Origin: a virus
Lineage: Duplodnaviria > Heunggongvirae > Uroviricota > Caudoviricetes > Ackermannviridae
Length of the DNA: 64,000 nt
Strand: one strand, 5' to 3'
Virus record (IMG/VR): IMGVR_UViG_2974693523_000001
Location: 38,803 to 102,802 of that record
Position 1 is the stretch's first letter. Every line of letters begins with the position of its first letter. The notes under the pieces were generated by a model that saw only the letters and a program-made list of their open reading frames with translations, did no database searches and was not told the DNA's origin. The translations under genes and the position numbers were made by a program. This document shows, piece after piece, positions 1 through 50,721 of this stretch.

Positions 1-289
1 TATTTGTTTTAGAACCCATTGAATAACCTTCAAGTGAAACGTCTGTAACACCCTCAGAAACAATAACAGCCTTTACCCAATTTGCCACTTTTCTAAATCT
101 TTCTTCTTCTGTAGCATAAGGTTCTTGAACAAGAATATTGACGTTACCCTTTGCATAAGTTCCGTTCAATCTCTTTATTTTACCATAATTATAGAAACGA
201 ATGTTTTCAAACTTGTGTGGGTGTTCAGTATTCCAAACACAGATAGCGGGTGAGTTTATTGATAGATCTAATCCAGCGACAATAGCCAT
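1..289 (-). CDS. RuvC/YqgF-like Holliday junction resolvase, partial (C-terminus beyond window edge)
   Basis: Minus-strand ATG at 289. N-terminus MAIVAGLDLSINSPAICVW matches the RuvC-fold motif (xLGxDxGxxxxGxAv). No stop before position 1. Confidence 0.35.
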   Translation of the reverse strand, partial: MAIVAGLDLSINSPAICVWNTEHPHKFENIRFYNYGKIKRLNGTYAKGNVNILVQEPYATEEERFRKVANWVKAVIVSEGVTDVSLEGYSMGSKTN

Positions 290-335
290 AAAAATGCCTT
301 ACACGTTGTTAACCATATAAGGCATATAGTTGGAT

Positions 336-1190
336 TTATACAGACATTGGGTATTTTAGTGGTCCGTGACTCTGATAACAAATAACATCAAAATCATCAG
401 TGTTGCATTTGAGAACATCATCCCAGTCTTTGATGCGAGGGTTAATCCATAGAATAGGTAAATCCATTGGCTCACGTTGAATTTGAATAAGCATTGTATC
501 ATATTGGTCCTCATAAATATGAGGATTTACAATGATATGAGTTGCTTCTGTAGGTTTATTACCTGTGATGCGCGCCATTAAACAAAGGAAAACAAACACC
601 TGAATCATGTTGAAATTTAATCCAAGAGGGACATCACATGAACGTTGATATGAGATCAGTGATAGATCTTTTTGAATTAAACTAAAATGATGTTGGTACA
701 TACATGGGCGTAGACAAGCCTTGTCAAAATCATCTGGTTTCCAGAAAGTGATGATTTCACCACGATCGTCAATACCCATTTTTAAATTTTCATAGACTTT
801 TGTGAATTGATTAACACCACCAAAGTCATGACCAATAACGCCATAGCATTTACCCATATCACCATCGCCGCGATAGTGTGGGTTGCTAGTCCAAGACGGA
901 CTAGATGCGTTTGCCAGCCATGTTTTAGTGCCTAATGCTACAAAGTCATAGGCATTATCATATCCCCTTAGATAACCGAGTAACTCGGCTACAGCTGACT
1001 TCCAAAAACTTTGACGTGTTGTATCCATTGGTAAGTTATTAAAATAAGCGCCATCTTCGGACATAACGGGATTGTACTCAAAAATAGCTTTTTTAAGTGT
1101 TAAGCATTTTTTACCCGTTCTTTCATTATGGATCCAAGTACCTTCTTGAACCAACTTACGACAAAGGTTTATATATTGATGATCAATCAT
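336..1190 (-). CDS. thyA: thymidylate synthase family enzyme (ThyA/Td-like; dUMP-specific by conserved Asn)
   Basis: Motifs MIDHQYINLCRKLVQEG (matches ThyA N-terminus), RTGKK, IITFWKPDD, PCMYQHHF (active-site Cys), YQRSCDVPLGLNFN. Start moved to the ATG at 1190, which has GGAGA upstream. Confidence 0.7.
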   Translation of the reverse strand: MIDHQYINLCRKLVQEGTWIHNERTGKKCLTLKKAIFEYNPVMSEDGAYFNNLPMDTTRQSFWKSAVAELLGYLRGYDNAYDFVALGTKTWLANASSPSWTSNPHYRGDGDMGKCYGVIGHDFGGVNQFTKVYENLKMGIDDRGEIITFWKPDDFDKACLRPCMYQHHFSLIQKDLSLISYQRSCDVPLGLNFNMIQVFVFLCLMARITGNKPTEATHIIVNPHIYEDQYDTMLIQIQREPMDLPILWINPRIKDWDDVLKCNTDDFDVICYQSHGPLKYPMSV

Positions 1191-1425
1191 GTATATTCTC
1201 CGAGGAAAATTGTGGGAGTGCATTTATGCGCTTGATACTAAATGAACCACTTTCAGCGTTCATTATAACTAAAAAATTTTCGCTATCTACATCAAGAACA
1301 AAAATAGAGGTTTTACATTGTAGAAACTTTTTATAAAGCCATTGATAAACCTGTGGTTCTGAATACATGTTTACTGAAACACTATCAGGTTTTGTTTTTA
1401 AATGTTCTATGAATTTTTCAATCAT
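1183..1425 (-). CDS. hypothetical protein
   Basis: ORF; internal ATG at 1425 preceded by GAGGAA. Track start at 1452 is TTG. Confidence 0.4.
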   Translation of the reverse strand: MIEKFIEHLKTKPDSVSVNMYSEPQVYQWLYKKFLQCKTSIFVLDVDSENFLVIMNAESGSFSIKRINALPQFSSENIHD

Positions 1426-1783
1426 TTTGTTCCTCAACATAATTAATTTCAAAAACTGTAATAGCTTTAATTATAATCTCATACCATGCAGAACGAAAAC
1501 CTGATTCATGGTATGAGAATAAATATTTATCACCATTGATGTTCACAACACCGTTTTGTAATTCACCATTATTAGAGGCAATGGTCATAAAATCAAAAGC
1601 TTTTCTATGGGTTTCATAATTGATAACAAACCAATCTTTCTTTTGTTCGATAGCGCTTTCTAATAAACTGTTAAATTCTAGGATCTGCTCCTCAGATACA
1701 TCTGTATCTCCATTGAGAATTTCTTCACAACATATCATACCAAAAGTACTGATTCTTTTTGCTACAAATTCCATTTTAGTCAC
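1418..1783 (-). CDS. hypothetical protein (121 aa)
   Basis: ORF packed tightly in a same-strand operon. Confidence 0.5.
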   Translation of the reverse strand: MTKMEFVAKRISTFGMICCEEILNGDTDVSEEQILEFNSLLESAIEQKKDWFVINYETHRKAFDFMTIASNNGELQNGVVNINGDKYLFSYHESGFRSAWYEIIIKAITVFEINYVEEQND

Positions 1784-2312
1784 CTAATTTTATTTGTCTG
1801 TCTTGAGGTCTTGAAAAAACATATGCTTCGCTTAGATTGCAATAGGTAAGAAGCCAATTCACATTACCTGTTGAAACAATCATAGGCGCATTTGAATTAC
1901 CAACACCAAGGTAAATGACATCACAAATGTTATAGAAACGGCTGTTTAGTGATATTTTTACAATGTGATCAAAATCAACAATACACTCAAGAAGAAACTC
2001 ATTAAGTTCCTTTTTCATTTTTTCCATAGGTTGATTATCTTTTAGATCATCATATGGTGTAACTACCTCACGGGGCTCGATACACATATTCATTATTTCA
2101 AAAGAATACATGAGTCGCTTCACAAGGAATTGCCCTTTACCACACTTGATGATAAATTTTGAACCAGAACCCTTATTTCTTTCTTCTATAAAATATCTAT
2201 CCAAAATAGGATAGGCAATATTAGACGTATCAATAACCGTTTTATCCCATAGACGTAAAGGTAATTGAGAACTCAATATAGATGCAAATCTGTTAAGTTT
2301 CATTTTAAACAC
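1776..2312 (-). CDS. hypothetical protein (178 aa)
   Basis: ORF in a same-strand operon; 8-nt overlap with downstream gene. Confidence 0.5.
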   Translation of the reverse strand: MFKMKLNRFASILSSQLPLRLWDKTVIDTSNIAYPILDRYFIEERNKGSGSKFIIKCGKGQFLVKRLMYSFEIMNMCIEPREVVTPYDDLKDNQPMEKMKKELNEFLLECIVDFDHIVKISLNSRFYNICDVIYLGVGNSNAPMIVSTGNVNWLLTYCNLSEAYVFSRPQDRQIKLGD

Positions 2313-2314
2313 CT

Positions 2315-2665
2315 TTAAAATATAGCTGTAATGGATGTTTCAATAAATTCTGGTGCGACCAATGTGTAACGCTCAGGGCATAGCGCATTATCAGCAGTAT
2401 AGAACGCGATATAAACAACACCATTAATAATAAAACGATGTACATAGTTGCTATGTTCTACCGCGTTTTCAATGAACCGGAATGCTTTCTCATTACCTAC
2501 GCTACAGATATCAAAAATTTCTTCTTTTTTGCGACCAACAAACATTTGTAAAAAAGCAGAACGCATTTCAAAAAATTCTTCTTTTGTTAAATCAGAATTC
2601 ATCATGACAATATTCCTATTAAAAGTTATTTTGAATACTTTAAACCAAAAATCTTCAATAAACAT
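2315..2665 (-). CDS. hypothetical protein
   Basis: ORF; track start at 2692 is GTG and lies inside a hairpin. First ATG is at 2665. Confidence 0.4.
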   Translation of the reverse strand: MFIEDFWFKVFKITFNRNIVMMNSDLTKEEFFEMRSAFLQMFVGRKKEEIFDICSVGNEKAFRFIENAVEHSNYVHRFIINGVVYIAFYTADNALCPERYTLVAPEFIETSITAIF

Positions 2666-2677
2666 CAATTTTTTAAG

Positions 2678-2706
2678 AAAAAAAAAATCCACCCCGAAGA
2701 GTGGAT
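2678..2706 (-). terminator. intrinsic terminator (hairpin ATCCAC/GTGGAT followed by U-run on minus strand)
   Basis: A10 run, 6-bp stem and loop on the plus strand equal stem plus U-run on the minus strand. Sits immediately 3' of the tRNA-like element. Confidence 0.4.
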
Positions 2707-2716
2707 TTTAATGGGT

Positions 2717-2782
2717 TGGCGAGGGCGGGAGTTGAACCCGCTGTTTAGCTGTGCGGACTAAACAAAAACCTCTATCTACGCC
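2717..2782 (-). pseudogene. degenerate tRNA-like element (intact T-arm GCGGG-TTCAACT-CCCGC and acceptor 3' strand; no canonical D/anticodon arms; possible GCA loop)
   Basis: Manual folding: the T-arm and a 7-nt acceptor 3' strand are present, but the 5' acceptor partner and D-arm are not recoverable in about 66 nt. Confidence 0.3.
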
Positions 2783-2961
2783 TTTAATTTTTTGATGGTC
2801 CAGTCAAACAATGTCCACTTTGTTAGATAGCGATATGCATCTCTATAACTTTTAAACTGTGTTGCCTTATTAATATCCAAAGTATAACAGACATCACCTG
2901 GGAAACTAACAATATATTGTCTTTCACTGTTTGCTATAACAAACATATCACACCTTTAAAA

Positions 2962-3038
2962 TGGTGGGTCTGAGGGGAATTGAACCCCTGATCCTAGAGT
3001 TATGAGCTCTCCGCTTTAGACCGCTAAGCTACAGACCC
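2962..3038 (-). tRNA. tRNA-Met (anticodon CAT; could be initiator/elongator/Ile-lysidine type)
   Basis: Manual cloverleaf: acceptor GGGTCTG/CAGACCC, D-arm GCTT-AGCGGTCTAA-AGC, anticodon stem GAGAG/CTCTA with loop CTCATAA, T-arm AGGGG-TTCAATT-CCCCT, encoded CCA. Confidence 0.85.
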
Positions 3039-3706
3039 TTATAACGTATTAACTCCTTGATAGTATCAAAAGTGTTTGTATCAAGAAGTTTGATGTGTTC
3101 GCCTCTGATGATATACAATGGTTTAGTGCAATATGCCCATTTGCATTCATCCCTTTCTGTTTTATAACCCTTAACTTCTATAAAACATTCATAAGCGGGT
3201 AAATAAAAATCAGGGAAATATAAATGAGGACTTTCTCTCCAAATATACTCTTGAGGGTGTGTTTCACCTTCCCACTCTATGTTATTAGCATCAAGCCATT
3301 TGGCTACTAATAATTCCCAGTTACCCTTTAGTTTGTGGCCTCTGTATTCGATACAATTTCTTCCACAAACATTATTGGATGAATAAGAACTAGGGTTTTC
3401 AGAAACAGCCCTTTTCATCCTTTCTGAATGAGCCTTCCTTCTTTGATCAGTCCATTCAATGTTAGAACTCGCAACACTTAATTTTTCTCTAGTATCTTGA
3501 GAAACGATACACTCACGGCCTTCCTGTTTAGCTTTAGTGAATTGATTCTGACCATTACCTCTCCTTTCACTCATAGCTTTCAACCAAGCTTCTGATTTAG
3601 GTTTTTTAGGTTTGATGTTTATGTTATTCTTGCATGCGGACTCATGCACTGCTAAACCTCCAGTGTTCCCACATGTTTTCCCACAATATTTACATTGTAG
3701 CTGCAT
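3029..3706 (-). CDS. freestanding homing-endonuclease-like protein: N-terminal Cys/His zinc finger plus C-terminal PD-(D/E)xK nuclease core
   Basis: CKYCGKTC...HESAC zinc finger; C-terminal PDFYLPAYECFIEVKG fits D...ExK. Start moved to the ATG at 3706, where the preceding GAGG is an SD. The track's N-terminal extension (3707-3826) is built from tRNA remnants. Sits between tRNA genes. Confidence 0.5.
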   Translation of the reverse strand: MQLQCKYCGKTCGNTGGLAVHESACKNNINIKPKKPKSEAWLKAMSERRGNGQNQFTKAKQEGRECIVSQDTREKLSVASSNIEWTDQRRKAHSERMKRAVSENPSSYSSNNVCGRNCIEYRGHKLKGNWELLVAKWLDANNIEWEGETHPQEYIWRESPHLYFPDFYLPAYECFIEVKGYKTERDECKWAYCTKPLYIIRGEHIKLLDTNTFDTIKELIRYKGL

Positions 3707-3711
3707 AACAA

Positions 3712-3736
3712 CCTCTAACCACTGAGCTAAGGGGCC
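3712..3736 (-). pseudogene. tRNA 5'-half remnant (GGCCCCT-TA-GCTC-AGTGGTTAGAGG)
   Basis: Perfect tRNA acceptor-plus-D-arm signature with no matching 3' half nearby. Its GAGG now serves as the SD of the endonuclease gene. Confidence 0.45.
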
Positions 3737-3806
3737 AAAATTGGGAGCGGGATGGTTGATAGCCATCAGTATGTAATCCATCATAGGCAAGGCTTTGATG
3801 CCTTGG

Positions 3807-3842
3807 GTCTGTGTGCCTAGAATCACATACCTCTCCGCTTTA
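3807..3842 (-). pseudogene. decayed tRNA-Met-like remnant
   Basis: Shares the segments gggtctg, cctaga and cctctccgcttta with the intact tRNA-Met at 2962-3038, with internal deletions. Confidence 0.35.
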
Positions 3843-4115
3843 TTCTTCTGGTTCTTTCAAACTTTGTTCTTTTGAAAGATTGTTCATAATAAAATCGAAT
3901 AAAATTTCTGTTTTGTCTACGGACCAACATTCATGCCCATTTTTCATAACAGCAACAGAAACAGGTCTTCCTTTATCATCCCAACAATTAACTTCTGTAT
4001 AACAGGCACTTTGATCAGCGTCAATATCACCGTGGACTTGCTTGAACATCCACAATAGCTTCTGTTCATCGTTCATTTCAGAAATTAACATTTTATTCAC
4101 CAAATGGTTCTTCAT
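3840..4115 (-). CDS. hypothetical protein (91 aa)
   Basis: ORF between tRNA genes. Confidence 0.4.
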   Translation of the reverse strand: MKNHLVNKMLISEMNDEQKLLWMFKQVHGDIDADQSACYTEVNCWDDKGRPVSVAVMKNGHECWSVDKTEILFDFIMNNLSKEQSLKEPEE

Positions 4116-4323
4116 AAAAACGAAGCGGGTGTTTAGAGGCCATTAGGTTCACACAAAAAGACAACTCCTTTACATCTTCATGGATAATAGCGTCAGGGTT
4201 GTTTTTGTATTCCTTGCGTTGCTCTTGTGCAACCTGTAACACAAGTTTCACAAAGCCGTAAAGTCCTTTAGCTCGGATACCTTTTCTGATGTTCTCGACC
4301 AGTTGTTGATCTAAATTTTCCAT
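4093..4323 (-). CDS. hypothetical protein (76 aa)
   Basis: Track ORF starts inside tRNA-Arg. Internal ATG at 4323 is preceded by AGAGGTG. Confidence 0.4.
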   Translation of the reverse strand: MENLDQQLVENIRKGIRAKGLYGFVKLVLQVAQEQRKEYKNNPDAIIHEDVKELSFCVNLMASKHPLRFYEEPFGE

Positions 4324-4340
4324 AAACACCTCTAAACAAA

Positions 4341-4417
4341 TGGCGCGCTGTACAGGATTCGAACCTGTGACCACAAGCTTAGAAGGCTCGTGCTCTATCC
4401 TACTGAGCTAACAGCGC
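4341..4417 (-). tRNA. tRNA-Arg (anticodon TCT)
   Basis: Manual cloverleaf: acceptor GCGCTGT/ACAGCGC, D-arm GCTC-AGTAGGATA-GAGC, anticodon stem CGAGC/GCTTG with loop CTTCTAA, T-arm ACAGG-TTCGAAT-CCTGT, discriminator G, CCA. Confidence 0.85.
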
Positions 4418-4652
4418 ATAAATTAATGAGGGTTACGCCGTCCCTCTGCTACCGCTTGCCGGCCATTACGCCTCATCAAAGTAGCCGATTTATTTTATTG
4501 AAATCCTCTTAAGTCGAATATAATAGAGCATACCTCTAAATTCTTTATAGCCATGTGCCACTCAAAAGGATTTCAATAAAGGGGCTGTTTCAAACCCCTT
4601 GGAATGGTGTGGATTAACAATCGCTGACCTGTAATTGTACAGGCACCACACG

Positions 4653-5282
4653 CTAGTTCACAGCGTCACCAATATGACTGAGTTGGTGAACGTCCCCATT
4701 GTCTAGGGCATCTCTCCACCTAAGCAAGGCTTCTTTAACTTCTTTATTACTCTGAGTCATAGCTAAACGGTAAGCATATTCAGATTTTCTTCTGCGCCAA
4801 GCATAATGAGCTTCTAACTCTCTTTCAAAAAGACCTAGATATCCACGTTTTTTATTGAATGGGTCATTACATTGCGCTTTGAACTTACCCGCTACTTTAC
4901 ACCAGCAAACACCTATGAGATATTCTCCAGAACTAGCTTTGTGATCATTTATGAACGCATTAATTTGCCTTGTCACAAACATACATGTATCAGGTGAATA
5001 TAATTTGTTCCCTACTAGCTTTAAATCTTTGTCTAGTACATAATCAAACCCATCTGTTGGGTAATTAGATTCATACCATTCAGCAAAATTTTGGTAGTGT
5101 AACCAATCACCACAAACTTCACATTCTTTATACGTTGGTTGCCTAGAATGATATTTCACGTCGTAGCATCTCTGGAGCATACTTCTCCATTTTATGTACG
5201 AATCTGTTAGAACGCCATCTTGACTCGCTTTATGACGCCCCTTTTCATAGACACCAACACCAAACAATAATTTGTTTCTCAT
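4653..5282 (-). CDS. freestanding homing-endonuclease-like protein with HNH-like region and AP2-type DNA-binding domain
   Basis: YLIGVCWCKVAGKFKAQCN..RGYLGLFERELEAHYAW fits the AP2 pattern. N-terminal GVYEKGRH...YIKWRSMLQRCY and LDKDLKLVGNKLYSPDTCMFVTRQINAF resemble phage HNH/AP2 homing endonucleases. Sits inside the tRNA cluster. Confidence 0.5.
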   Translation of the reverse strand: MRNKLLFGVGVYEKGRHKASQDGVLTDSYIKWRSMLQRCYDVKYHSRQPTYKECEVCGDWLHYQNFAEWYESNYPTDGFDYVLDKDLKLVGNKLYSPDTCMFVTRQINAFINDHKASSGEYLIGVCWCKVAGKFKAQCNDPFNKKRGYLGLFERELEAHYAWRRRKSEYAYRLAMTQSNKEVKEALLRWRDALDNGDVHQLSHIGDAVN

Positions 5283-5840
5283 AACAAATGTACTCGACGA
5301 AAACTTCTCAAAATATACTTTCTCAAATACATTTTGAGAAGTGGGTTGGGAAAATACCCACGTCCCGTCTGTCTCACGACAGTCTCAATCTAGCGGGTCT
5401 TAGGCTCCCGTTAGAAGGGTTCTGTACGGCTTGAGGGATGTAAGCCACCAGAACTAGCGAAACACAACATTTGATCGCGAAATGGCATGTTTATAGCGGT
5501 TGACTTCCCGCGACTGGCAAAACCCCAGTCCATAGAGCGTGGTATGCGTTGCCTCACTCTTTTAAGCGGTCTTAATCTTAGATGAGGAATCCGTTAGCAA
5601 CAATGTTAATCGGATTGATTAAGACCGCTTAAAAAAGACCCCTACACTAAAGGGGTGAACATAAATTTATGTCCTTTTAAAACGCACTTTATCACATCAA
5701 AACAAACTTGAAAAATTTATTTTGATGTGACCCCTATACAGGGACCACAACTGACCTCCGAATCCCAACAAAACGAGGGTCACTGGTTTGCCATGCCATG
5801 TCTTACCAGCTTTAAACACTCTTGACAAAAAGCGCTTAAA
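5283..5840. other. 558-bp structured non-coding region (multiple perfect hairpins/palindromes); candidate stable small RNA(s)
   Basis: 14-bp perfect stem aagcggtcttaatc...gattaagaccgctt (5563-5632) with an internal aatccg/cggatt stem. 14-nt palindrome acataaatttatgt. 11-bp inverted repeat tcacatcaaaa/ttttgatgtga. No credible ORF. Confidence 0.4.
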
Positions 5841-5842
5841 GA

Positions 5843-5919
5843 TGGCGTCCACAATGGGATTTGAACCCATGACCTTTCCCTTAGGAGGGGAATGCTCTAT
5901 CCAACTGAGCTACGCGGAC
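5843..5919 (-). tRNA. tRNA-Arg (anticodon CCT)
   Basis: Manual cloverleaf: acceptor GTCCGCG/TGTGGAC (two G-U pairs), D-arm GCTC-AGTTGGATA-GAGC, anticodon stem TTCCC/GGGAA with loop CTCCTAA, T-arm ATGGG-TTCAAAT-CCCAT, discriminator G, CCA. Confidence 0.75.
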
Positions 5920-5921
5920 GG

Positions 5922-6011
5922 TGGTGGGTGCAGATGGATTCGAACCATCCCGTTTCAAACCTCATTCCTCACAAGGATATGCGCGACCTCTCGCTATTAC
6001 AGTTTACACCC
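5922..6011 (-). ncRNA. 90-nt tRNA-like RNA (intact acceptor GGGTGTA/TGCACCC, T-arm GATGG-TTCGAAT-CCATC, CCA) lacking a canonical anticodon/D arm
   Basis: Manual folding: the ends are perfectly tRNA-like, but the interior 55 nt folds as a GCGA-GAGG-TCGC hairpin and gives no 5-bp/7-nt anticodon arm. Either a type-II tRNA that needs tRNAscan-SE, or a tRNA-derived stable RNA. Confidence 0.35.
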
Positions 6012-6019
6012 AAATTGAA

Positions 6020-6106
6020 CACCCCGTGCAGGATTCGAACCTGCGTCACTTTCGGTATCTCGAGCACGAGTCTCCGACTAATCTTAACCGCTAGAATGAA
6101 CGGGGT
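6020..6106 (-). ncRNA. 87-nt tRNA-like RNA (acceptor ACCCCGT/ACGGGGT, T-arm GCAGG-TTCGAAT-CCTGC, no encoded CCA) with non-canonical interior
   Basis: Manual folding: acceptor and T-arm are perfect, the D-arm is weak, and the interior forms an extended interrupted hairpin TCGG-AGA-CTCG-TGCT-CGAG-ATA-CCGA instead of an anticodon arm. Confidence 0.3.
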
Positions 6107-6322
6107 GGTTGGCGGTGAGTAATTTAGCTAACTCACCTTATCAATTTATATTATTAAAGAGCTTTTGGGTGTTTTAAGTAAGGGCGGATTTTAACCCGCC
6201 CTGTACTTTGGACGCCCCGTTAAGTAACTAAGCTGCTGTTTTTGAACTGCTTATTCCTTAACTTGAGACCATTAAAACATGCTTAATTTATGAAAGCAAC
6301 ACATTTTTAATTTTTTTTTTTG

Positions 6323-6469
6323 TTACTCGTCTTCGTCTTCCAAACCACCACTCAATTCAATGTCAGGTGATTCACAAAATGGGCAAACTTCTGGCTTTAT
6401 GTGTGAATTACAAGAAATTGAACACTCTTCGTCACAGTTTTGACAAATTATACCGTAGACAACATCCAT
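6323..6469 (-). CDS. small Cys-rich (zinc-ribbon-like) protein, 48 aa, acidic C-terminus
   Basis: Own translation: MDVVYGIICQNCDEECSISCNSHIKPEVCPFCESPDIELSGGLEDEDE. GAGGA SD lies 8 nt upstream. Absent from the ORF track (under 60 aa). Confidence 0.4.
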   Translation of the reverse strand: MDVVYGIICQNCDEECSISCNSHIKPEVCPFCESPDIELSGGLEDEDE

Positions 6470-6514
6470 CTTAATATCCTCATGATTTGTTTGATGTTAT
6501 GCGTTTAATTAGTA

Positions 6515-12178: not shown

Positions 12179-12207
12179 AGGGTGGTAAAATTACCACCCA
12201 TTTTTTA
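12179..12207 (+). terminator. intrinsic terminator (GGGTGGTAA...TTACCACCC + T6)
   Basis: 9-bp stem followed by ATTTTTT. Confidence 0.7.
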
Positions 12208-12230: not shown

Positions 12231-12635
12231 ATGTCTAATTTACGTCAATCAGTAGAAGTCACGCTTATTACCATCCACAATCAAGTTGGTACCATCCGAG
12301 TAGAACAGAAAATTGGTGCAATGCATATTGATATTGGTGGTAAAGTCACTAACGTTGTTTGTGGTGGTCTGAGTTGTCCTGTAATTGAACGCTTACCAGT
12401 ACCGCAAACCGCAAAGCTAGACAATGTACCTGTATTCTCTTACCTTATTCTTGTAGGTCACACCGATGGCCCAGATATTAAACAGGAATATACAGAAATG
12501 CTTATTGAGCATCATTTGAAATCTTTGTTTAATTATTACAATCACTGTCGCTCTGTTATGAAAGCCGCTGGTCGTACAATGCAAGAGTTTTCTTCTGGTT
12601 ACGGACTACATGAACTAGATCTGAAAGGTGTGTAA
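12231..12635 (+). CDS. hypothetical protein (134 aa)
   Basis: ORF with GGGGAAAG SD. Confidence 0.5.
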   Translation: MSNLRQSVEVTLITIHNQVGTIRVEQKIGAMHIDIGGKVTNVVCGGLSCPVIERLPVPQTAKLDNVPVFSYLILVGHTDGPDIKQEYTEMLIEHHLKSLFNYYNHCRSVMKAAGRTMQEFSSGYGLHELDLKGV

Positions 12636-13071
12636 GATGTGGTATGTTGAATTAAAAGAAAATGGTTCTGTTTGGTATTGTGGTGCACAACAATCAACCC
12701 AATGGTGCGTAAATCCAATATCTGGTGTAACTGAGAGTGTAGAAGGTTTTTCAAGTTATAAACACTTCTGCAGTGTTGAGAATGTTGGTAAAATTTTCTC
12801 AACCCGCTTAACACCAAAAGGTGAATTATCAACCTATGTGTTTACTGAAGATCCTTTAGACCCTTTGTTAAAGAAGCTTCTTGTAATAGCATTGGCAAAA
12901 AGTTTGGAAACAGAAGCTTTTAAAGCCGCTCAGTTGTGTAGTGATTTACAAAAGCGAATGTTTAGTGTTCTCAAAAATGAAGAATACAACTCTGTTGGAT
13001 TACACGCTCCGGTTACTCTCGATAAAAGTAATTTTTCTAAATCTGTTTGGATTGCAAGGAATTGGATATGA
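12628..13071 (+). CDS. hypothetical protein (147 aa)
   Basis: ORF, overlapping stop/start. Confidence 0.5.
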   Translation: MCKMWYVELKENGSVWYCGAQQSTQWCVNPISGVTESVEGFSSYKHFCSVENVGKIFSTRLTPKGELSTYVFTEDPLDPLLKKLLVIALAKSLETEAFKAAQLCSDLQKRMFSVLKNEEYNSVGLHAPVTLDKSNFSKSVWIARNWI

Positions 13072-13739
13072 AAACTAATCTAAAGTGTGTGTATGTTACC
13101 GAATATGGTGCTCAAGGTGTTTGTAATGCTGGTGTTTCACTAGTACGTAGCCCTGATGAATATAAACAAAGTTATCTTGCTGGTACACCTCATTTAACCA
13201 ATGTGAGCTTTGACAAACTTAATGAACCAAAATATATTCTTGTTAATGAACAATTTATTGGTGTTGTCATTACAACAGAAGAAAATATTGGTGAAATGAA
13301 AAGAGTTATGCGCGAGCATATCCATACACTCATCAAAAATTCTGTGGTCAAAGCACAAGAATATAAAGATGCGGCTGTTAAGCGTCTTGAATATTTTCAA
13401 ACAAAGATGCTTCGTTTTTGTAATAGTGCAAAAATGTTAGTCTTAACTGATGAAGGTGATCTTGAGATTATTACTGATGTTGAAGTACGCGGTGATCAAT
13501 ACATTGCAAAAAGTGATTTAGCACAATGTTCACTTCGTGGTAAAATGGGTGATTTCAAGCATATGTCCCACGCCTTTTTCTTTGTAATCTGTATGCCGGA
13601 TGCACCTAATGGTGAAGTTGAAACACTATTGAGGAATTATGCTGCGGATCAAATGATAGTTCTTGCTGGTCAATACAATAAGAGTTCTGATATTGTATTA
13701 GAGCGCGCTGCTAAACTGGTGTTAGGGAATTCAAAATGA
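13047..13739 (+). CDS. hypothetical protein (230 aa)
   Basis: ORF; its last 12 codons are duplicated downstream of the next gene. Confidence 0.5.
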   Translation: MDCKELDMKTNLKCVYVTEYGAQGVCNAGVSLVRSPDEYKQSYLAGTPHLTNVSFDKLNEPKYILVNEQFIGVVITTEENIGEMKRVMREHIHTLIKNSVVKAQEYKDAAVKRLEYFQTKMLRFCNSAKMLVLTDEGDLEIITDVEVRGDQYIAKSDLAQCSLRGKMGDFKHMSHAFFFVICMPDAPNGEVETLLRNYAADQMIVLAGQYNKSSDIVLERAAKLVLGNSK

Positions 13740-14053
13740 GTACAATCAGAAACCCGCTAGAGCTTTTAGCACAAGATCCAATCCAGCTAAGCTTGGTAAG
13801 CGTCAAATCAAAACTGATGATCATCATAACCAAGCTCATCAGAGAAAAATGTTGGACACAAGCTCAAGCGGCAAAGGAATTCGGTATATCACAGCCGAGA
13901 ATTAGCGACTTAATGAATGGAAAGATTTCAAAGTTCTCCATTGATACGTTATTAGAAATTCTAGGGTATTTAGGTTATTTATTGGACATCAAATTTAACC
14001 CAGAAGATGATAGCAATCCAATAAAAATGGACATAAAAAAGACAGCGGTGTGA
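13736..14053 (+). CDS. XRE-family HTH protein, HigA-antitoxin-like (orphan; no toxin gene adjacent)
   Basis: WTQAQAAKEFGISQPRISDLMNGKISKFSIDTLLEILGYLG fits the HigA/XRE HTH signature (LTQ..LA..LGVSQPRISDL..GK...SLD.L..LL). Confidence 0.55.
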   Translation: MSTIRNPLELLAQDPIQLSLVSVKSKLMIIITKLIREKCWTQAQAAKEFGISQPRISDLMNGKISKFSIDTLLEILGYLGYLLDIKFNPEDDSNPIKMDIKKTAV

Positions 14054-14083
14054 ACGCTGTCTTAAACCATATATATATTGTTG

Positions 14084-14122
14084 AGCGCGATGCTAAACTG
14101 GTGTTAGGGAATTCAATATGAG
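14084..14122 (+). repeat. direct repeat copy of 13700-13738 (37/39 identical) flanking the HTH gene
   Basis: gagcgcgctgctaaactggtgttagggaattcaaaatgag versus gagcgcgatgctaaactggtgttagggaattcaatatgag. Confidence 0.8.
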
Positions 14123-14516
14123 AAATATTCATTTTAAACTCTTCATTATGGATCTAAAACAGTTTGAATCCTATGGTCGTGTTGTTATCCATTGTCAAAC
14201 AATGGTGTACAATAGCGGGGAATATAGAGTTAACAACTTACCCGTGATTGGTGATATGCAATTTACTGAAGATTTTGTTAGACAGAATTTCAATTGCGTT
14301 ATCAAGGATGCTTCTGAATTAGCTTTAGTGTTTATTACCCCTTTTAATAATAGCGAACCTGATGCAATTGCTAGTGGTGTAAAAGCTGAAAAGATGTTCC
14401 GTGAATTTGTAGAAATTGACATTCTTTTCAAAAAGCGTGATCTTCTCGACCAACAAAACAAAATAGGTAACAAAATTGAAGATCTTGATTTTCTATTATC
14501 AAAGGTAAGGGAATAA
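14118..14516 (+). CDS. hypothetical protein (132 aa)
   Basis: ORF starting inside the right-hand repeat copy. Confidence 0.5.
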   Translation: MRNIHFKLFIMDLKQFESYGRVVIHCQTMVYNSGEYRVNNLPVIGDMQFTEDFVRQNFNCVIKDASELALVFITPFNNSEPDAIASGVKAEKMFREFVEIDILFKKRDLLDQQNKIGNKIEDLDFLLSKVRE

Positions 14517-14517
14517 C

Positions 14518-14943
14518 ATGATCTATCAAATAAAAGCAGTATCACAAGAACAAATTAAAACATCGGATAAGGTTGTTTTTCATACTTGTGTTCTATCAAC
14601 CAATGAAAATTCAGATGGTTTTGACGGCGAGTTAAAAGTAAAATCTCAAGAAAATTCAAAGGGTTCTGTTATATATCCTTTTTATTTTAATCGTGAAAAT
14701 CTTTTGCTGATGTTGTGTAAAGTCCACGCAAACAATGATCTTATCTACATTGTTTACCCTCTTTTTGAAGGTATTGATGGGTTTTACAAAAATGACGCTA
14801 TTTGTCAAACAGTTGAGACCATGCTTAGAATGTATCTTATAGGTGCAAGGGATATTACCCTGATGAACCTAAAAGACCAATCACAATCCATCGAAAAAAC
14901 AATCGATGGGATTAAACTTGAAATTGATAAAATAAGGTTTTGA
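14518..14943 (+). CDS. hypothetical protein (141 aa)
   Basis: ORF, operon packing. Confidence 0.5.
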   Translation: MIYQIKAVSQEQIKTSDKVVFHTCVLSTNENSDGFDGELKVKSQENSKGSVIYPFYFNRENLLLMLCKVHANNDLIYIVYPLFEGIDGFYKNDAICQTVETMLRMYLIGARDITLMNLKDQSQSIEKTIDGIKLEIDKIRF

Positions 14944-15419
14944 AAATGTCTAATTTTGTTTTGTTAAGTACAAAAAATGAACGTTATCCTAATGGTTCTT
15001 TAAAAATTTATGCTGAAGTAATGCATAACAAGGTTGAAGAACAAAGGCTAACGGCTTTCAATACCGCAGGTTTGTTAGGTGTAACTAAGGAAGATTTATC
15101 CTTTACCTATCAATCTGTAATCCTTACTACTGGTGTTCCACAAACAATTGATAGAAATTCACAAAAGGGTAAAATGTTTACTATTGTACCTCTTTTGATC
15201 AATCTATGCGATTCAATTTCTACTTCATCGGATCTTGAATTAAGCACAAAACACTATTTGTATGAGTATGCAAACGTTCATTTTCTAAGTCAAATGATTG
15301 CGGCAAACAACATCCATCTATTGGAAAATTTACAATCATTACAACATCTTGAAAATATTCGTCAAGAACTTTTAAAGAAAAATAAAGAAATTCTAACAGG
15401 TTATACAAAGAAACAATAA
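14940..15419 (+). CDS. hypothetical protein (159 aa)
   Basis: ORF followed by a terminator. Confidence 0.5.
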   Translation: MKMSNFVLLSTKNERYPNGSLKIYAEVMHNKVEEQRLTAFNTAGLLGVTKEDLSFTYQSVILTTGVPQTIDRNSQKGKMFTIVPLLINLCDSISTSSDLELSTKHYLYEYANVHFLSQMIAANNIHLLENLQSLQHLENIRQELLKKNKEILTGYTKKQ

Positions 15420-15446: not shown

Positions 15447-15480
15447 AAGGGGTGTAATTATTACGCCCTTTTTATTTTTA
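15447..15480 (+). terminator. intrinsic terminator (AAGGGGTG...CGCCCTT + T-run)
   Basis: Imperfect 7-bp stem followed by TTTTATTTTT. Confidence 0.5.
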
Positions 15481-32849: not shown

Positions 32850-32863
32850 TTCTAAAATTATTT

Positions 32864-32941
32864 TTCAAAAGGGGCTTGCAAAGGCCTCTTTTTCATTTTA
32901 TAGTGAACTCAACTTAAGGCAAACACTAAAGGAAAGCCAAA
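32864..32941 (+). promoter_or_regulatory. terminator-promoter-UTR cassette (hairpin AAAAGGGGCTTGCAAAGGCCTCTTTTT; -35 TTGCAA inside the hairpin, -10 TATAGT; conserved UTR)
   Basis: Own inspection. The same module recurs upstream of 33275 and 34842. Confidence 0.5.
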
Positions 32942-33184
32942 ATGAAAGTACAAGAAGCACACAAAAACAATTTTATTAATATTGTTAATAAGGGTTATCT
33001 ACTTTGTGTAACAGATAGCATGGGTAAAACATTACTTAAACCCACAAACATCGTAGATTCTGTTATTATTGTTGTTGAAAATAATAGATATTCAGACGTT
33101 TGGGCATACGATCCTAATAGAACGGGACAACGTTCAAAATATAAACATTTAAATCAGTATGTGACATCAATTCAAAGTAGTTAA
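32942..33184 (+). CDS. hypothetical protein (80 aa)
   Basis: ORF behind the cassette. Confidence 0.45.
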   Translation: MKVQEAHKNNFINIVNKGYLLCVTDSMGKTLLKPTNIVDSVIIVVENNRYSDVWAYDPNRTGQRSKYKHLNQYVTSIQSS

Positions 33185-33196
33185 TAAAATTATTTT

Positions 33197-33274
33197 TCAA
33201 AAGGGGGCTTTTCAAAGTCCCTTTTTCGTTTTATTATGATCTAAACTTAAGGCAAACACTAAAGGAAAGCCAAA
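33197..33274 (+). promoter_or_regulatory. second copy of the terminator-promoter-UTR cassette (-10 TATTAT)
   Basis: Sequence similarity to 32864-32941. Confidence 0.45.
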
Positions 33275-33481
33275 ATGAACGCTCTAGAAATTGCTAATGA
33301 AGTCCTAACTGAAATGAACGTAATCATTCCTGTTGAACTTGTTAACGCTGCGGGCTTTACCAACTTGAAAGAGATGGTGATGCACAACGCAACAACCCGC
33401 CGTCTTTTTGTTGGAATGTTTGTTGAACGCTGTGGTTCAAATGATGCTGCTATTGAACTTCTACAAAGCTGGAGCGCGTAA
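33275..33481 (+). CDS. hypothetical protein (68 aa)
   Basis: ORF behind the cassette. Confidence 0.45.
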   Translation: MNALEIANEVLTEMNVIIPVELVNAAGFTNLKEMVMHNATTRRLFVGMFVERCGSNDAAIELLQSWSA

Positions 33482-34761: not shown

Positions 34762-34764
34762 TTT

Positions 34765-34803
34765 TGAAAGGGGCTTGCATTAGCCTCTTTTTCATTTTAA
34801 TAT
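34765..34803 (+). promoter_or_regulatory. third copy of the terminator hairpin plus promoter (-35 TTGCAT, 17 bp, -10 TAATAT)
   Basis: Similarity to 32864-32904. Confidence 0.45.
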
Positions 34804-34841
34804 GACCTCATCAAGTAAACATTTGGCCTCAGGAGGCTACC

Positions 34842-44567: not shown

Positions 44568-45305
44568 TTAATTTGTGTAATTTCTTATAATGTCATGAAC
44601 TTGGTGTATCTCGGTATCAGTTAATAATACGCCCATAACCTTCTCAATGTTAGTCATTGGTGTAATAACTTGCTCACTTGTGTTATCTTTAGCGAACGCC
44701 TTAGATATAAAAGTGATATCTGATACAACTTCAGGTCTATTGATCAATTTAGCCATTTCTTGTGATGGCATTAGATCACCATCAACACAAATTTCATCAA
44801 CTGCATTAACAAAATTCAAAATATGTTCTAGCATATTGTTAACTTCTTTGCCATAACGAACATTCTTGTTGAACTGCTTACCACGGAACATCATATAAAC
44901 AGCCTGAGGACTCATGTTACTCATAATGTTTACTGGGTAAATAAAGTTACCTGAGAATCCTGGGTATAGCTTCATAGCAATACAGATGAGTCTTATAGAC
45001 TTTTTGTGATATTCCTCAGTTAACTCATAAGGATCATGTTCACTCTTCTGGAACAATAGCACAGAGAAAGGGGTGTATGTTAGCTCACTGAGATACATCA
45101 AATCAATAACTCGATTCTTGATGTGGGTCAAAAATAAAGAAGTTGTTATAGAGAACATAGTGTTTTTCCTTAATAACCATTCATTGACTTTATATCGCTG
45201 AACAATAAACAATACCACATATTTTATTAGGTTATACAACATATTGCCCAGAAACCCAGAAATTGCTGCCACTACTAGTGTGACCTCAATAGAAGTTGTA
45301 TTCAT
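44568..45305 (-). CDS. hypothetical membrane-anchored protein (245 aa)
   Basis: ORF with N-terminal TM helix. Confidence 0.45.
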   Translation of the reverse strand: MNTTSIEVTLVVAAISGFLGNMLYNLIKYVVLFIVQRYKVNEWLLRKNTMFSITTSLFLTHIKNRVIDLMYLSELTYTPFSVLLFQKSEHDPYELTEEYHKKSIRLICIAMKLYPGFSGNFIYPVNIMSNMSPQAVYMMFRGKQFNKNVRYGKEVNNMLEHILNFVNAVDEICVDGDLMPSQEMAKLINRPEVVSDITFISKAFAKDNTSEQVITPMTNIEKVMGVLLTDTEIHQVHDIIRNYTN

Positions 45306-45312
45306 TTGCTAT

Positions 45313-45447
45313 CCTTAAACTTCATGTCGGTCATAAAACAAAGAAGTTGTTTAAAGAAGTTGTTTGTGGGAGAACACTATGTTCTCCCTAAACTTCGTGT
45401 CGGTCAAAAACAAAGAAGTTGTTTAAAGAAGTTGTTTAAAGAAGTTG
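45313..45447. repeat. iteron-like region: two ~55-bp direct repeats (45313-45366, 45388-45447) each holding 2-3 tandem 13/14-mers AGAAGTTGTTTAA, separated by an 8-bp-stem palindrome GGGAGAAC-ACTAT-GTTCTCCC
   Basis: Own inspection of the intergenic sequence. Confidence 0.8.
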
Positions 45448-45450
45448 CGT

Positions 45451-47324: not shown

Positions 47325-48038
47325 TTATTTATATTTTTCCAAAATAAATTTTCTTAAACCTTCAGTAAATGCCCAACACGCTTGCCCATAAGGATCTGAA
47401 ACCCACTTAACTCTATTATTACCATATTGTTCAGACGCCTTTTCTTCACTGTATTCTGCGCAATCAATACAGATTGGATAACCATGATCAACATCTAAAG
47501 AATCACAAAACGAATGCATTAGAATAGAGGCAGCTTTTTTCTGAAATTCGGTCATACCACCATAATTTACAAAATAAGCACAAAGACCAGATCCAGAAGA
47601 AAAACCACAGAATAAAACACCTTGAAGTTCTTTGTCAACCTTACTTTGATCACTAATTCGTGTCAAGAATTCACGTCTATCTAAAAGTAAATCCAATGAA
47701 GTTACTATGTCTTCTGAAATAAGTTTGATGCAATGATCATTCAAAAGAGTTTTCATTAATGATCTGCCCAGATTACGAATATAGGCATCCCTTGCACTCA
47801 TATCCATTAATGTATGAACTTTTCTTGTAAGTTTTAGAATACGTGCTTGGATAAACTCACTTTCTTGTGTTTCGATTCCCAATCTTGTATTAGACAATGC
47901 ATTAGACAAAGAAATTAGACGGAGTAAATGAGTGTCACTAAGTTTATTATTCTTAATGTCACTAAAAACCGAAATTAGATGTTTATCAATTTCTTGAGAA
48001 ACACTTTTGAGTGTTTTATCAAATATTTCTGATTTCAT
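47325..48038 (-). CDS. paralog family member 1 (237 aa), unknown function
   Basis: Shares SGLC...FC...YPICIDC...KWVSDPYGQACWAF motif series with the four genes upstream. Confidence 0.55.
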   Translation of the reverse strand: MKSEIFDKTLKSVSQEIDKHLISVFSDIKNNKLSDTHLLRLISLSNALSNTRLGIETQESEFIQARILKLTRKVHTLMDMSARDAYIRNLGRSLMKTLLNDHCIKLISEDIVTSLDLLLDRREFLTRISDQSKVDKELQGVLFCGFSSGSGLCAYFVNYGGMTEFQKKAASILMHSFCDSLDVDHGYPICIDCAEYSEEKASEQYGNNRVKWVSDPYGQACWAFTEGLRKFILEKYK

Positions 48039-48060
48039 GTTAGTACCTATTAACCAAAAG

Positions 48061-48801
48061 TTAAAAAGTTGAAGGAGTAGAAATTGTCAAAAACTCACTT
48101 TCCAAATACTTTTTGAAATTGATTACATGCTCCCAGCGCGCTTGACCATAATCACTTGAATCCCACTTCAACAAGTTTGTATCAAATTGTCTTTCTGCTT
48201 CTCTAGCATCGTAATTACCCAAACAAATTGGATAGAAAGTATCCACTTTTAAATTACGGCAATATTCTTTGTGAAGACGGCTGACAACACCATTTTCAAA
48301 AACTGTGATACCTTTTGTTTTTTCACTAATGTAGCTACAGAAACCGGATGTAATGTTACAATCCAAAACATTCACATAATTTAACTTTTTGATTTCTTTA
48401 TCTTTTAACAAGTCACTTATTTCAGTGATTACACCACGGTTTTCTAACAGTTTATCAACTAATTGAATGGAATAGTTAATACCATATCGATTGTTAGCTG
48501 CTACATTACCAAGCGCAACCATCAAAGAGTGATACAGATTTTTAGTAAACCCACTAAAAATTAAAATATCATCAATTGACTTAACATCAATAGAAATTTT
48601 TTCTAAAGTTTTAGCAACTATATTTGATACTTCGAGTCTAAATTCCGATCTATGACCATAAAACAGTGCATTATCTTTCAGACATCTAAGAAGACATTTT
48701 AGTTCATCTACATTTTCTTTATCAAATTCTACGTCTTTTAGAGCTAAGAATTCATTCTCTAGCATTTGCGCAAAAGAATCTACTTGTGTAATTGTGAGCA
48801 T
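48061..48801 (-). CDS. paralog family member 2 (246 aa)
   Basis: SGFCSYI...YPICLGNYDA...KWDSSDYGQARWEHV. Confidence 0.55.
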   Translation of the reverse strand: MLTITQVDSFAQMLENEFLALKDVEFDKENVDELKCLLRCLKDNALFYGHRSEFRLEVSNIVAKTLEKISIDVKSIDDILIFSGFTKNLYHSLMVALGNVAANNRYGINYSIQLVDKLLENRGVITEISDLLKDKEIKKLNYVNVLDCNITSGFCSYISEKTKGITVFENGVVSRLHKEYCRNLKVDTFYPICLGNYDAREAERQFDTNLLKWDSSDYGQARWEHVINFKKYLESEFLTISTPSTF

Positions 48802-49538
48802 TATTTCACCTCATCTTCAACATCAATAAATGATAGGAAATCTTCAATAAATTTCCAGCGCGCTTGACCATAATCACCTTTATCCCATTTAGGTTCTTTA
48901 CAGTATAGTTGCTCAGCAATCTTTTTATTGTATTCACCAACACAAACGGGGAAAACGTTACTGACATTGATTTTCTTACAGTAAGTGTGAAGAAGACGCT
49001 CAAAGATTTTGTACTCTAATGAAGAATCTAAATAATTCTCTACGGCTTCACACATACCACAATTAAGTGAAAGTGTACCATCAATAAACCAAATTTGTTT
49101 ATCTTCATCGTAAGCCCCACAAAATTCGGATTTAGATGCGTACTTAATGATCAACTTCTTATTGCCTAAAATAGTTCCGATACAGTGGATAACGGTACTG
49201 CGAATGTGATATGAATGAAGGCCTAACTTTGATACATAATCTTCCAAAATAGAACCAGTCCGGATCATAGCGTGTTGAATTTGTCTAAATTCATCATAAT
49301 TGAGTTGTTGTAAAGTTATTTTTTCAAAAAATTTGTAAATGAATTGATTAATAGTACCCTCACAATGTTTAAATCTTTCATCTATTGGGATAGAAGATGA
49401 CTCTGTGAACATTGTATATATGTACACAATATGATGGTAATTTTTGATAGAATCAGAGTAAAGATTTTCATCTTTTATCAACTCTTTTAAGTCTGTAAAA
49501 TAATTTTCAATAATTATTGAAACGTTTTTGGTGTTCAT
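48801..49538 (-). CDS. paralog family member 3 (245 aa)
   Basis: NCGMCEAV...FPVCVGEY...KWDKGDYGQARWKFI. Confidence 0.55.
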   Translation of the reverse strand: MNTKNVSIIIENYFTDLKELIKDENLYSDSIKNYHHIVYIYTMFTESSSIPIDERFKHCEGTINQFIYKFFEKITLQQLNYDEFRQIQHAMIRTGSILEDYVSKLGLHSYHIRSTVIHCIGTILGNKKLIIKYASKSEFCGAYDEDKQIWFIDGTLSLNCGMCEAVENYLDSSLEYKIFERLLHTYCKKINVSNVFPVCVGEYNKKIAEQLYCKEPKWDKGDYGQARWKFIEDFLSFIDVEDEVK

Positions 49539-50272: not shown

Positions 50273-50317
50273 GAGATTTTCCTATTAAAGTTTATCAAAC
50301 CTAACCACAATAAAGTG

Positions 50318-50345
50318 AAAAAGGGGTTTTGTAAACCCCTTTTTG
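50318..50345. terminator. bidirectional intrinsic terminator (AAAAAGGGGTTTTGTAAACCCCTTTTT)
   Basis: Hairpin flanked by A- and T-runs; near-copy of the 47292 terminator. Confidence 0.6.
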
Positions 50346-50349
50346 AAGA

Positions 50350-50721
50350 TTAACCTTGGTTTAACTCCCAAGCACCTAACATGAATTCAAACGCTTTTGC
50401 TTTCCATTTTTCATTAATGAATCCGTGCCCGTTAGGTCTTCCCGAATAGACAAGCCAAGCATAATCATGGCTATAATTAAACTGGTATTCAACTGGCTCA
50501 CTATCCTTCTGTAACCAAATTTTTGTTAGATTAGGGAATCTTGGTGTATCTTCAAGAATACTTACGTGTTCACAAAGAACAATCATACCCCGTTTGACAC
50601 CAAGTAATTCTAATTGTTCATTAGATTCATGAACTTCAGCAAAAAATTTCTCACCTATTTGAATATAGGCTGCATTGGCATCAAACATTTTTTGACTCCG
50701 CTTTTTCAACAATGTAATCAC
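50350..50721 (-). CDS. hypothetical protein (123 aa) embedded in the paralog array; possibly a truncated/diverged relative
   Basis: C-terminal ...GHGFINEKWKAKAFEFM loosely echoes the paralogs' PYG.ARW.F tail. Confidence 0.4.
   Translation of the reverse strand: MITLLKKRSQKMFDANAAYIQIGEKFFAEVHESNEQLELLGVKRGMIVLCEHVSILEDTPRFPNLTKIWLQKDSEPVEYQFNYSHDYAWLVYSGRPNGHGFINEKWKAKAFEFMLGAWELNQG

Follow-up and report, generated by a model that had tools for sequence, protein, structure and literature searches.

Gp168, a 105-amino-acid (aa) helix-turn-helix (HTH) protein of Vibrio phage vB_VchM_Kuja, is encoded by a gene that, as established by sequence comparison, was inserted into the phage genome and originates from a toxin-antitoxin (TA) module carried by a small Vibrio plasmid. 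The gene lies in a stretch of 64,000 nucleotides (nt) of the IMG/VR record IMGVR_UViG_2974693523_000001 (hereafter the window), which was identified by megablast, with 100% identity, as part of the Kuja genome (NC_048827, 148,180 bp; Ackermannviridae, Kujavirus). This phage was isolated on V. cholerae O1 El Tor from River Kuja in Kenya, and the sole label given to gp168 in NC_048827 is 'HTH DNA binding protein'. The explanation that we regard as reasonably probable is that only the antitoxin half of a plasmid Gp49/HTH_37 module was captured and inserted at the overlap of gp169 and gp167, and that its product neutralises the toxin as a means of counter-defence; this last, functional step would follow from the sequence, the predicted structure and the analogy with known systems.

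Among the ~5.8 billion proteins searched, the nearest relatives of gp168 are all from Vibrio, with 95% aa identity in V. cholerae (P0001), 88% in V. fluvialis, 83% in V. parahaemolyticus and lower values thereafter. At the nucleotide level, local alignment of window positions 13736-14066 with the V. cholerae contigs L004-L011 gives 322 identical positions out of 331 (97.3%). The homology begins at the ATG of gp168 and ends 12-13 nt past the stop codon, 3 nt beyond a hairpin, so that the captured DNA stops 6 nt before the stop codon of the donor toxin gene and includes no toxin-gene sequence. In the donor, this minus-strand hairpin (14039-14063 in the window) is the intrinsic terminator of the convergent toxin gene, located inside the 3' end of the antitoxin gene; in the phage it is a leftover, indicating where the captured DNA ends on the right.

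The donor contigs represent a plasmid that is small and circular: the ends of L005 (3489 nt) overlap by 77 nt, which yields a circle of 3412 bp, and L006 (3412 nt) is a circular permutation of the L004 unit. The plasmid carries 11-bp iterons, and the part of L004 adjoining the module has matches in V. cholerae plasmids of 3.2-3.5 kb, pSO5Y being one of them. L004 itself (1-6470; contig ACAGBG010000071.1 of GCA_052000075.1, with the toxin gene at 1634-1948 on the minus strand) comprises two tandem plasmid-like units of ~3.4 kb that share a backbone with iterons (2575-2716) and a gene pair (81 aa and 78 aa) and that differ in cargo, one carrying the Gp49/HTH_37 module and the other a YjaZ-like gene and a DnaD_N/HTH_36 gene, a layout suggestive of small plasmids that form a modular family, or of a co-integrate. 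An origin from a cassette of the V. cholerae superintegron was also considered, because the Vibrio contigs are short. It was rejected, since the contigs turned out to be the ~3.4-kb circular iteron plasmid and since the captured DNA, consisting of the open reading frame (ORF) and 13 nt, has no space for an attC site (VCR) of ~120 nt; this judgement is based on the insert size and the donor contigs, no dedicated attC model having been run. The word 'cassette', applied to the insert in an earlier note made from the DNA sequence, is inappropriate in its integron sense.

In bacteria and plasmids the gene is invariably one half of a pair. An ORF of the Gp49 family (PF05973), 102-139 aa long, is located on the opposite strand, 15-27 bp past the antitoxin stop codon, in 26 of the 26 loci for which downstream sequence was available (the Gp49 ORF of L010 is cut by the contig end). 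The loci were sampled from V. cholerae, V. fluvialis, V. harveyi, V. rhodolitus, Aeromonas, Pectobacterium, Rep3 plasmids and islands resembling integrative and conjugative elements; examples of the convergent arrangement are L004 1298-1948, L012, L018, L022, L025 and L031-L033. With identities of 50-95%, the gene family and its toxin partner occur widely across Vibrio, Aeromonas, Pectobacterium and plasmids. The partners bear the NCBI name 'RelE/ParE family toxin', and Gp49/HTH_37 is a recognised HigBA-like type II pair, composed of a toxin from the RelE/ParE superfamily that degrades mRNA and a HigA-superfamily antitoxin (PMC7157771, PMC11980606). Throughout the convergent clade, the intrinsic terminator of the toxin gene (a minus-strand hairpin followed by a T-run) lies within the final codons of the antitoxin gene, while distant HTH_37 relatives, from cyanobacteria among others, are co-directional with the toxin first. 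A literature search for the convergent Gp49 layout retrieved nothing relevant, and a search of PDB sequences gave no hit to a solved structure of the Gp49 toxin.

No Gp49 homologue was found in the window by tblastn with ten Gp49 queries, and a Gp49 search of all deposited phage genomes found none in the Kuja record, which makes gp168 an orphan: the phage gene has no adjacent toxin, whereas its 95%-identical plasmid counterpart has one, in convergent orientation. The earlier note had proposed an antitoxin-type gene without its toxin, and this proposal holds, given that the closest relatives (95% at the aa level, 97.3% at the nt level) always adjoin a Gp49 toxin gene and that Kuja has none. The same disparity is seen across the clade, in which an intact toxin is missing from 11 of 15 viral loci and from none of 26 bacterial loci (p=4e-7); if distinct types are counted, the corresponding numbers are 8/11 and 0/8 (p=0.003). 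Orphan copies with about 50% identity occur in the Kuravirus phages 172-1 (gp009), SGF2, SR02 and pEC-N1203-2Af.1, and also on IMG/VR contigs of 20-100 kb. The Karamvirus phages EnC15, KMB20 and KMB17 have their HTH gene intact, next to a convergent Gp49 remnant without the first ~37 residues, which looks like a second, older capture with a decayed toxin. The EnC15 locus (homologue EnC15_0074) corresponds to L003 2384-3034 (PQ096439 42188-42838), and the Karamvirus HTH_37 ORF is fused in frame to an N-terminal extension of 39 aa, resulting in a 142-aa protein annotated as 'inhibitor of host Lon protease'. No repeat signature like that of Kuja, described below, is present around the Kuravirus or Karamvirus copies.

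The protein itself fits this origin in fold as well as in family. The earlier note had described an XRE-type HTH gene of 105 aa at 13736-14053, which agrees with a match to Pfam HTH_37 (PF13744; E=2.8e-19, 69.1 bits against a gathering cutoff of 27). The AlphaFold model (mean predicted local distance difference test score, 90) comprises N-terminal helices (residues 7-37), the HTH motif (42-60), a further helix (69-78) and a C-terminal β-hairpin (81-102). Its best matches in the PDB are the HTH_37 proteins 2a6c and 2o38, followed by the HigA2 and HipB antitoxins, the former from M. tuberculosis. The label 'HigA-like', also given in the earlier note, is adequate as far as it denotes the Gp49/HTH_37 type, which is HigBA-like, and inadequate if taken to mean proximity to V. 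cholerae HigA-2; close kinship to V. cholerae HigA-2 or HigA-1 was considered and discarded, since the PDB sequence search, with 2a6c and 2o38 as its best hits, yielded no entry for V. cholerae HigA2. Gp168 has an intact ORF and shares residues 1-57 and 79-105 with the plasmid antitoxin without any change, which makes retained toxin binding plausible from the sequence. The five substitutions (N58D, Q63K, M71T, M75I and H78Y) all fall, according to the predicted fold, between the recognition helix and helix 5. Loss of N58 was examined as a possible hallmark of orphan copies and was rejected in this role: only Kuja (D) and 172-1 (S) deviate, while the remaining orphans keep N, so the change is not a general signature.

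The position of these substitutions would also fit a retuned DNA binding, and it is conceivable that gp168 acts mainly as a DNA-binding regulator, either as a transcription factor of the phage or as a repressor of the plasmid toxin/antitoxin promoters or of other host genes. The XRE HTH core is complete and confidently folded in the model, the closest solved structures are annotated as transcriptional regulators, and the PHROG annotations read 'HTH DNA binding protein' or 'transcriptional regulator'. Type II antitoxins usually both neutralise their toxin and bind DNA, so a regulatory role overlaps with the explanation that we prefer. As the principal function it appears distinctly unlikely, because the strict linkage to Gp49 in every bacterial locus and the TA pairing known at the level of the family (PMC7157771) point to toxin neutralisation.

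How the gene entered the phage can be followed at both junctions. It is bracketed by a direct repeat of 40 nt (13701-13740 and 14083-14122; start-to-start spacing of 382) detected by repeat finding and DNA search of the window, with 38 of 40 positions identical and mismatches at 13708 (C, vs A at 14090) and 13735 (A, vs T at 14117). Exactly two copies exist in the window, against an expectation of 0.00 from 100 shuffles. The pair of near-identical repeats with two mismatches had been seen correctly in the earlier note; its limits, given there as 13700-13738 and 14084-14122 and described as '37-bp' or '39-mers', were 1-2 nt off. It had also been noticed that the upstream gene has its 3' end duplicated in the repeat and that the right copy runs into the next ATG, and both observations hold. 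The left copy is formed by the last 12 codons and the stop codon of gp169, reading …ERAAKLVLGNSK, and the right copy, which is covered by no ORF, would read …ERDAKLVLGNSI if translated. Both copies end in ATGAG, which contains the start codon of the HTH gene on the left and that of gp167 (14118) on the right; the initiation region of gp167 is identical to that of gp168 and lies 64 nt 3' of the new stop codon. Upstream, a 7-nt match (ATATTGT, with an in-frame 3-nt gap) could stretch the repeat to about 51 nt, although this extension is weak.

The ancestral state of the site is indicated by three Logan metagenome contigs (L028-L030), found through a large protein collection, which contain distant relatives of the region: gp171 is 73% and gp169 37% identical at the aa level, and gp166, gp164 and gp163 follow in the same order. 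In these contigs the gp169 homologue ends with …KK*, the sequence AAATGA containing both its stop codon and, in overlap, the ATG of the gene that follows; a 105-aa gene is absent between the two. The next gene (139 aa) resembles gp167 with E=0.001 over 29 aa; with so marginal a similarity it is regarded as a positional equivalent rather than a proven orthologue. At position 13735 the left copy has the same state as these relatives (AAATGA), so the left copy looks ancestral and the right one (ATATGA) derived. The earlier note had read the arrangement as a recent insertion by recombination, which is borne out by the sharp borders of the foreign DNA and by the ATGA overlap in distant syntenic relatives, and it had suggested searching related phages for the empty site. 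This comparison succeeded in part, as the distant relatives have an ATGA overlap and no HTH gene at the site, whereas a close relative with the exact empty site was found neither by megablast and tblastn against 50,697 phage records nor in protein and DNA scans of IMG/VR. Homologues of the flanking genes were likewise found in no other deposited phage or IMG/VR record, and scans of metagenome DNA of the Joint Genome Institute (JGI) detected neither the Kuja-specific allele nor the predicted empty-site sequence, which would be a single repeat copy, …GGGAATTCAAAATGAGAAATATTC….

We propose the following course of events. The ancestral junction would have read …GGGAATTCAAAATGAGAAAT…, with ATGA common to gp169 and gp167, and the donor reads …GTTATGAGTACA…, so that the ATGAG common to the donor and the start of gp167 would mark the left crossover. 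Joining at the ATGA overlap could have occurred by illegitimate recombination guided by microhomology, or by template switching. The right border, located at a stable hairpin, is a plausible point for a break, or for polymerase stalling and a template switch, and a return to the phage template at a point 40-50 nt upstream of where it had been left would have generated the direct duplication. As the sequence shows, the antitoxin gene uses the original ribosome-binding site of the junction (GGGA, resembling a Shine-Dalgarno (SD) sequence), with stop/start coupling to gp169; since gp167 retains the duplicate copy of this initiation region, neither phage gene is damaged. A single recent event is compatible with the divergence seen, which amounts to 2/40 for the two repeat copies and 9/331 for insert versus plasmid allele. 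A transposon-type insertion was considered and rejected, because there are no flanking inverted repeats, the only ORF is the HTH gene and not a transposase, and the duplication (at least 40 nt) is too long.

Classical phage morons, as known from Hendrix and co-workers, carry their own promoter and terminator. The Kuja insert resembles them, as the earlier note had claimed, in being an extra gene between two genes that are adjacent in related phages (with the proviso that these relatives are remote and that their next gene has no more than marginal similarity to gp167). It differs from them in being a bare ORF placed on the initiation region of the upstream gene: no promoter-like site was detected upstream within the insert and the terminator scan found no forward-strand terminator after it, the sole terminator-like hairpin facing the wrong way. 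It is therefore not a textbook moron. The features of the locus are collected in Table 1.

Table 1. Features at and around gp168, with positions in the window
Feature	Position	Strand	Remarks
gp169, 223 aa, unknown function	13068..13739	+	Annotated coding sequence in NC_048827; left repeat copy made up of its last 12 codons and stop
Repeat, left copy	13701..13740	+	Coding (gp169 C-terminus); SD-like GGGA and ATG now serve the HTH gene
gp168, 105-aa HTH_37/XRE protein	13736..14053	+	Orphan homologue of the Vibrio plasmid Gp49/HTH_37 antitoxin
Horizontally acquired segment	13736..14066	+	322/331 nt identical to the ~3.4-kb V. cholerae plasmid (L004 1298-1628)
Hairpin and T-run	14039..14063	-	From terminator scan; reading of the donor sequence
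AT-rich 16-nt junction/filler CCATATATATATTGTT	14067..14082	.	Between the captured DNA and the right repeat copy
Repeat, right copy	14083..14122	+	Non-coding relic of the gp169 3' end; gives gp167 its SD-like GGGA and ATG
gp167, 132 aa, unknown function	14118..14516	+	Downstream phage gene; start region kept via the duplication

The Kuja allele of the gene is known from Kuja alone, while the plasmid allele occurs on a few dozen contigs from V. cholerae and V. metschnikovii. All nine nucleotide differences between them are confined to 13885-13996, a stretch of 112 nt covering codons 50-87 (P≈0.001); the 149 nt before it and the 70 nt after it are identical. Five of the nine are states present in other Vibrio alleles, which, together with the clustering, indicates that the true donor was probably an unsampled, slightly mosaic allele. 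Taken by itself, the clustering in 13885-13996 points to a mosaic donor allele or to focused change in the DNA-reading part of the protein.

These differences also bear on the possibility that the locus is an artefact, namely an assembly chimera of phage and host plasmid, or that transfer took place in the reverse direction, from a phage to Vibrio plasmids. The phage was grown on V. cholerae and is represented by a single assembly. However, a chimera would yield neither an imperfect 40-nt duplication of phage sequence, nor an ATG in register, nor nine substitutions relative to all sampled plasmid alleles. The family and its toxin partner are spread, at 50-95% identity, over Vibrio, Aeromonas, Pectobacterium and plasmids, while the genes flanking gp168 are phage-specific and the relatives of Kuja have no insert, which speaks against a phage origin. 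In view of the imperfect duplication, the substitutions and the phylogenetic spread, we consider both an artefact and phage-to-plasmid transfer very unlikely indeed.

If gp168 neutralises the plasmid toxin, infection of a plasmid-bearing Vibrio can be pictured as follows. Expression of host genes would collapse, the labile plasmid antitoxin would decay and the freed toxin would cause abortive infection, unless antitoxin made by the phage kept the toxin bound and allowed the infection to proceed; the phage-made protein might also keep the promoter of the module repressed. A role of this kind against abortive infection had been called plausible in the earlier note. Since the module is rare, any benefit would be confined to plasmid-bearing, probably environmental, vibrios. 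An alternative is that gp168 is a neutral passenger, useless to the phage: a chance illegitimate recombination with a multicopy plasmid of the host would have brought it in, and only the recency of this event would explain its persistence. The gene has been seen in a single Kuja genome, it differs little (2.7%) from the plasmid allele, the donor module is rare, and nine substitutions are too few for a test of selection (ratio of non-synonymous to synonymous change, pN/pS, of 0.32). On the other hand, an intact ORF has been placed exactly on an existing translation-initiation site, repeats of 40 nt around 342 nt would be expected to cause ready deletion by phage recombination unless the insert is selected or extremely recent, and members of the same clade lack the toxin in several unrelated phage lineages, one of them with a decayed toxin. 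On balance we judge a passenger without function to be unlikely.

Counter-defence, the explanation that we prefer, nevertheless has several observations against it. Some are those just cited: the single Kuja genome, to which is added the distance of the empty-site relatives (37% at the aa level), the rarity of the donor module (dozens of contigs), and the pN/pS of 0.32, which is derived from five non-synonymous and four synonymous changes (pS 0.06), too few for a selection test, and which cannot separate selection from recency. N58D alters a near-invariant residue of the recognition helix, PADLOC returned no significant hit for either gp168 or the Gp49 toxin protein, and the donor clade is convergent, unlike the canonical co-directional order with the toxin first. 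Finally, the mechanism of insertion is one that we infer from the junction sequences alone, and the 16 AT-rich nt at the right junction (14067-14082) are an unexplained filler, which may be a degraded extension of the duplication.

A broader reading, which we put forward tentatively and hold to be possible rather than probable, is that the convergent Gp49/HTH_37 modules found in Vibrio, Aeromonas and enterobacteria are abortive-infection systems of plasmids and islands, and that capture of the antitoxin alone is a recurrent escape route of virulent phages, taken in Kujavirus, Kuravirus, Karamvirus and uncultivated contigs. On that reading, the convergent layout, with each gene forming its own transcription unit and the toxin terminator residing in the 3' end of the antitoxin gene, would make the antitoxin separately capturable, and Kuja would offer a natural view of a bacterial virus stealing a type II antitoxin.

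Virus-borne orphan antitoxins are an already known class, of which gp168 is an unusually well-resolved member. Phage ΦTE has captured ToxI from a ToxIN plasmid (Blower et al. 2012, as quoted in PMC12548467, ref 48). In both cases a virulent phage gains, by recombination, the antitoxin of a plasmid-borne TA system (abortive infection in the case of ToxIN, and by analogy here) and leaves the toxin; however, ToxI is a type III RNA found in laboratory escape mutants, whereas gp168 is a type II HTH protein with a predicted function, acquired in a natural event. Neutralisation has been shown experimentally for Phd antitoxin homologues of archaeal viruses, SMV1 gp44 among them (PMC11065993). Like gp168, SMV1 gp44 is a lone viral gene homologous to a type II antitoxin that in the hosts invariably comes with its toxin, and it is read as an anti-defence gene. 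It is archaeal, belongs to the Phd/Doc family and has no donor or insertion scar known at the nucleotide level, whereas in Kuja the donor and the junctions are resolved and neutralisation is a prediction.

AdfN comprises orphan DarG1-like NADAR enzymes with which T-even phages counter TA defence (PMC11825919). These are also phage-borne orphan antitoxin homologues, with several independent co-options, but they represent an old acquisition and act enzymatically (type IV), reversing ADP-ribosylation of DNA, whereas gp168 would bind a HigB/RelE-like toxin and stems from a very recent capture. To our knowledge, Dmd of phage T4 is not homologous to the cognate antitoxins RnlB and LsoB, unlike gp168, which is 95% identical to its cognate antitoxin. 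Dmd acts against RnlA and LsoA by replacing the labile host or plasmid antitoxin after host shut-off (Otsuka & Yonesaki 2012, as quoted in PMC12548467, ref 46). The published Gp49/HTH_37 modules (HigBA-like, tad-ata type) consist of the same Pfam families, a PF05973 toxin and a PF13744 antitoxin, and are found on mobile elements (PMC7157771, PMC11980606); they differ in being co-directional with the toxin first, whereas the donor clade is convergent and Kuja has the antitoxin only. Orphan antitoxins have also been found enriched in the leading regions of plasmids (PMC11541004), and those of type II are considered hard to recognise by bioinformatics (PMC11825919).

If gp168 neutralises the plasmid toxin, it would be a natural, nucleotide-resolved case of a virulent phage taking a counter-defence gene from the very defence locus it faced, and one in which the sequence reveals the donor element, the junctions on either side, the neighbouring genes left intact and the empty site of the ancestor. 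It would also imply an anti-phage role for a small cryptic V. cholerae plasmid and for a convergent Gp49/HTH_37 variant of which we found no earlier description, and it would turn those genes of this clade that Kuravirus, Karamvirus and other phages carry under the label 'HTH DNA binding protein' into candidate anti-toxin factors, with relevance to the choice or engineering of therapeutic vibriophages and coliphages. The comparison of genes paired in cells and orphan in viruses provides a simple, reusable screen. The provenance, the recurrence across phage families and the convergent module make gp168 a good experimental lead, the concept itself being established.

Within the Kuja genome, gp168 is part of a dense co-directional block of genes with unassigned functions, from gp171 to gp165 (approximately 12231-15419 in the window), which is delimited by a hairpin at 12180-12199 and a terminator-like site at 15447-15471; a literature search on the functions of Kuja genes retrieved nothing relevant. 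A second gene of this block, gp165 (14946-15419, 157 aa), is also absent from the distant relatives, as L028 and L030 pass from the gp166 homologue straight to the gp164 homologue.

Other repeats are scattered over the window. Repeated cassettes of 50-100 nt at 32854-32956, 33187-33289 and 34762-34810, spaced by 333 and 1566 nt, contain a stem-loop, rich in GC and ending in a T-run (AAAGGGGCTTGCAAAGGCCTCTTTTT), and after it a TATA-like box; they resemble terminator/promoter cassettes around small ORFs. An iteron-like cluster of direct repeats at 45117-45450 (AAAGAAGTTGTTT units, with perfect 31-nt copies at 45335 and 45407) might serve as an origin or as an array for regulation. A 36-nt motif (CCAGCGCGCTTGACCATAA…CCCACTT) occurs five times in 47373-50776 with a spacing of 720-1140 nt (mostly about 750), which suggests tandem paralogous genes, and a perfect 37-nt repeat (ACTTCTTCAGTTTCAGTTGGTTGCTCAACTTCAGTTT), whose copies start 45 nt apart, is located at 54098-54179.

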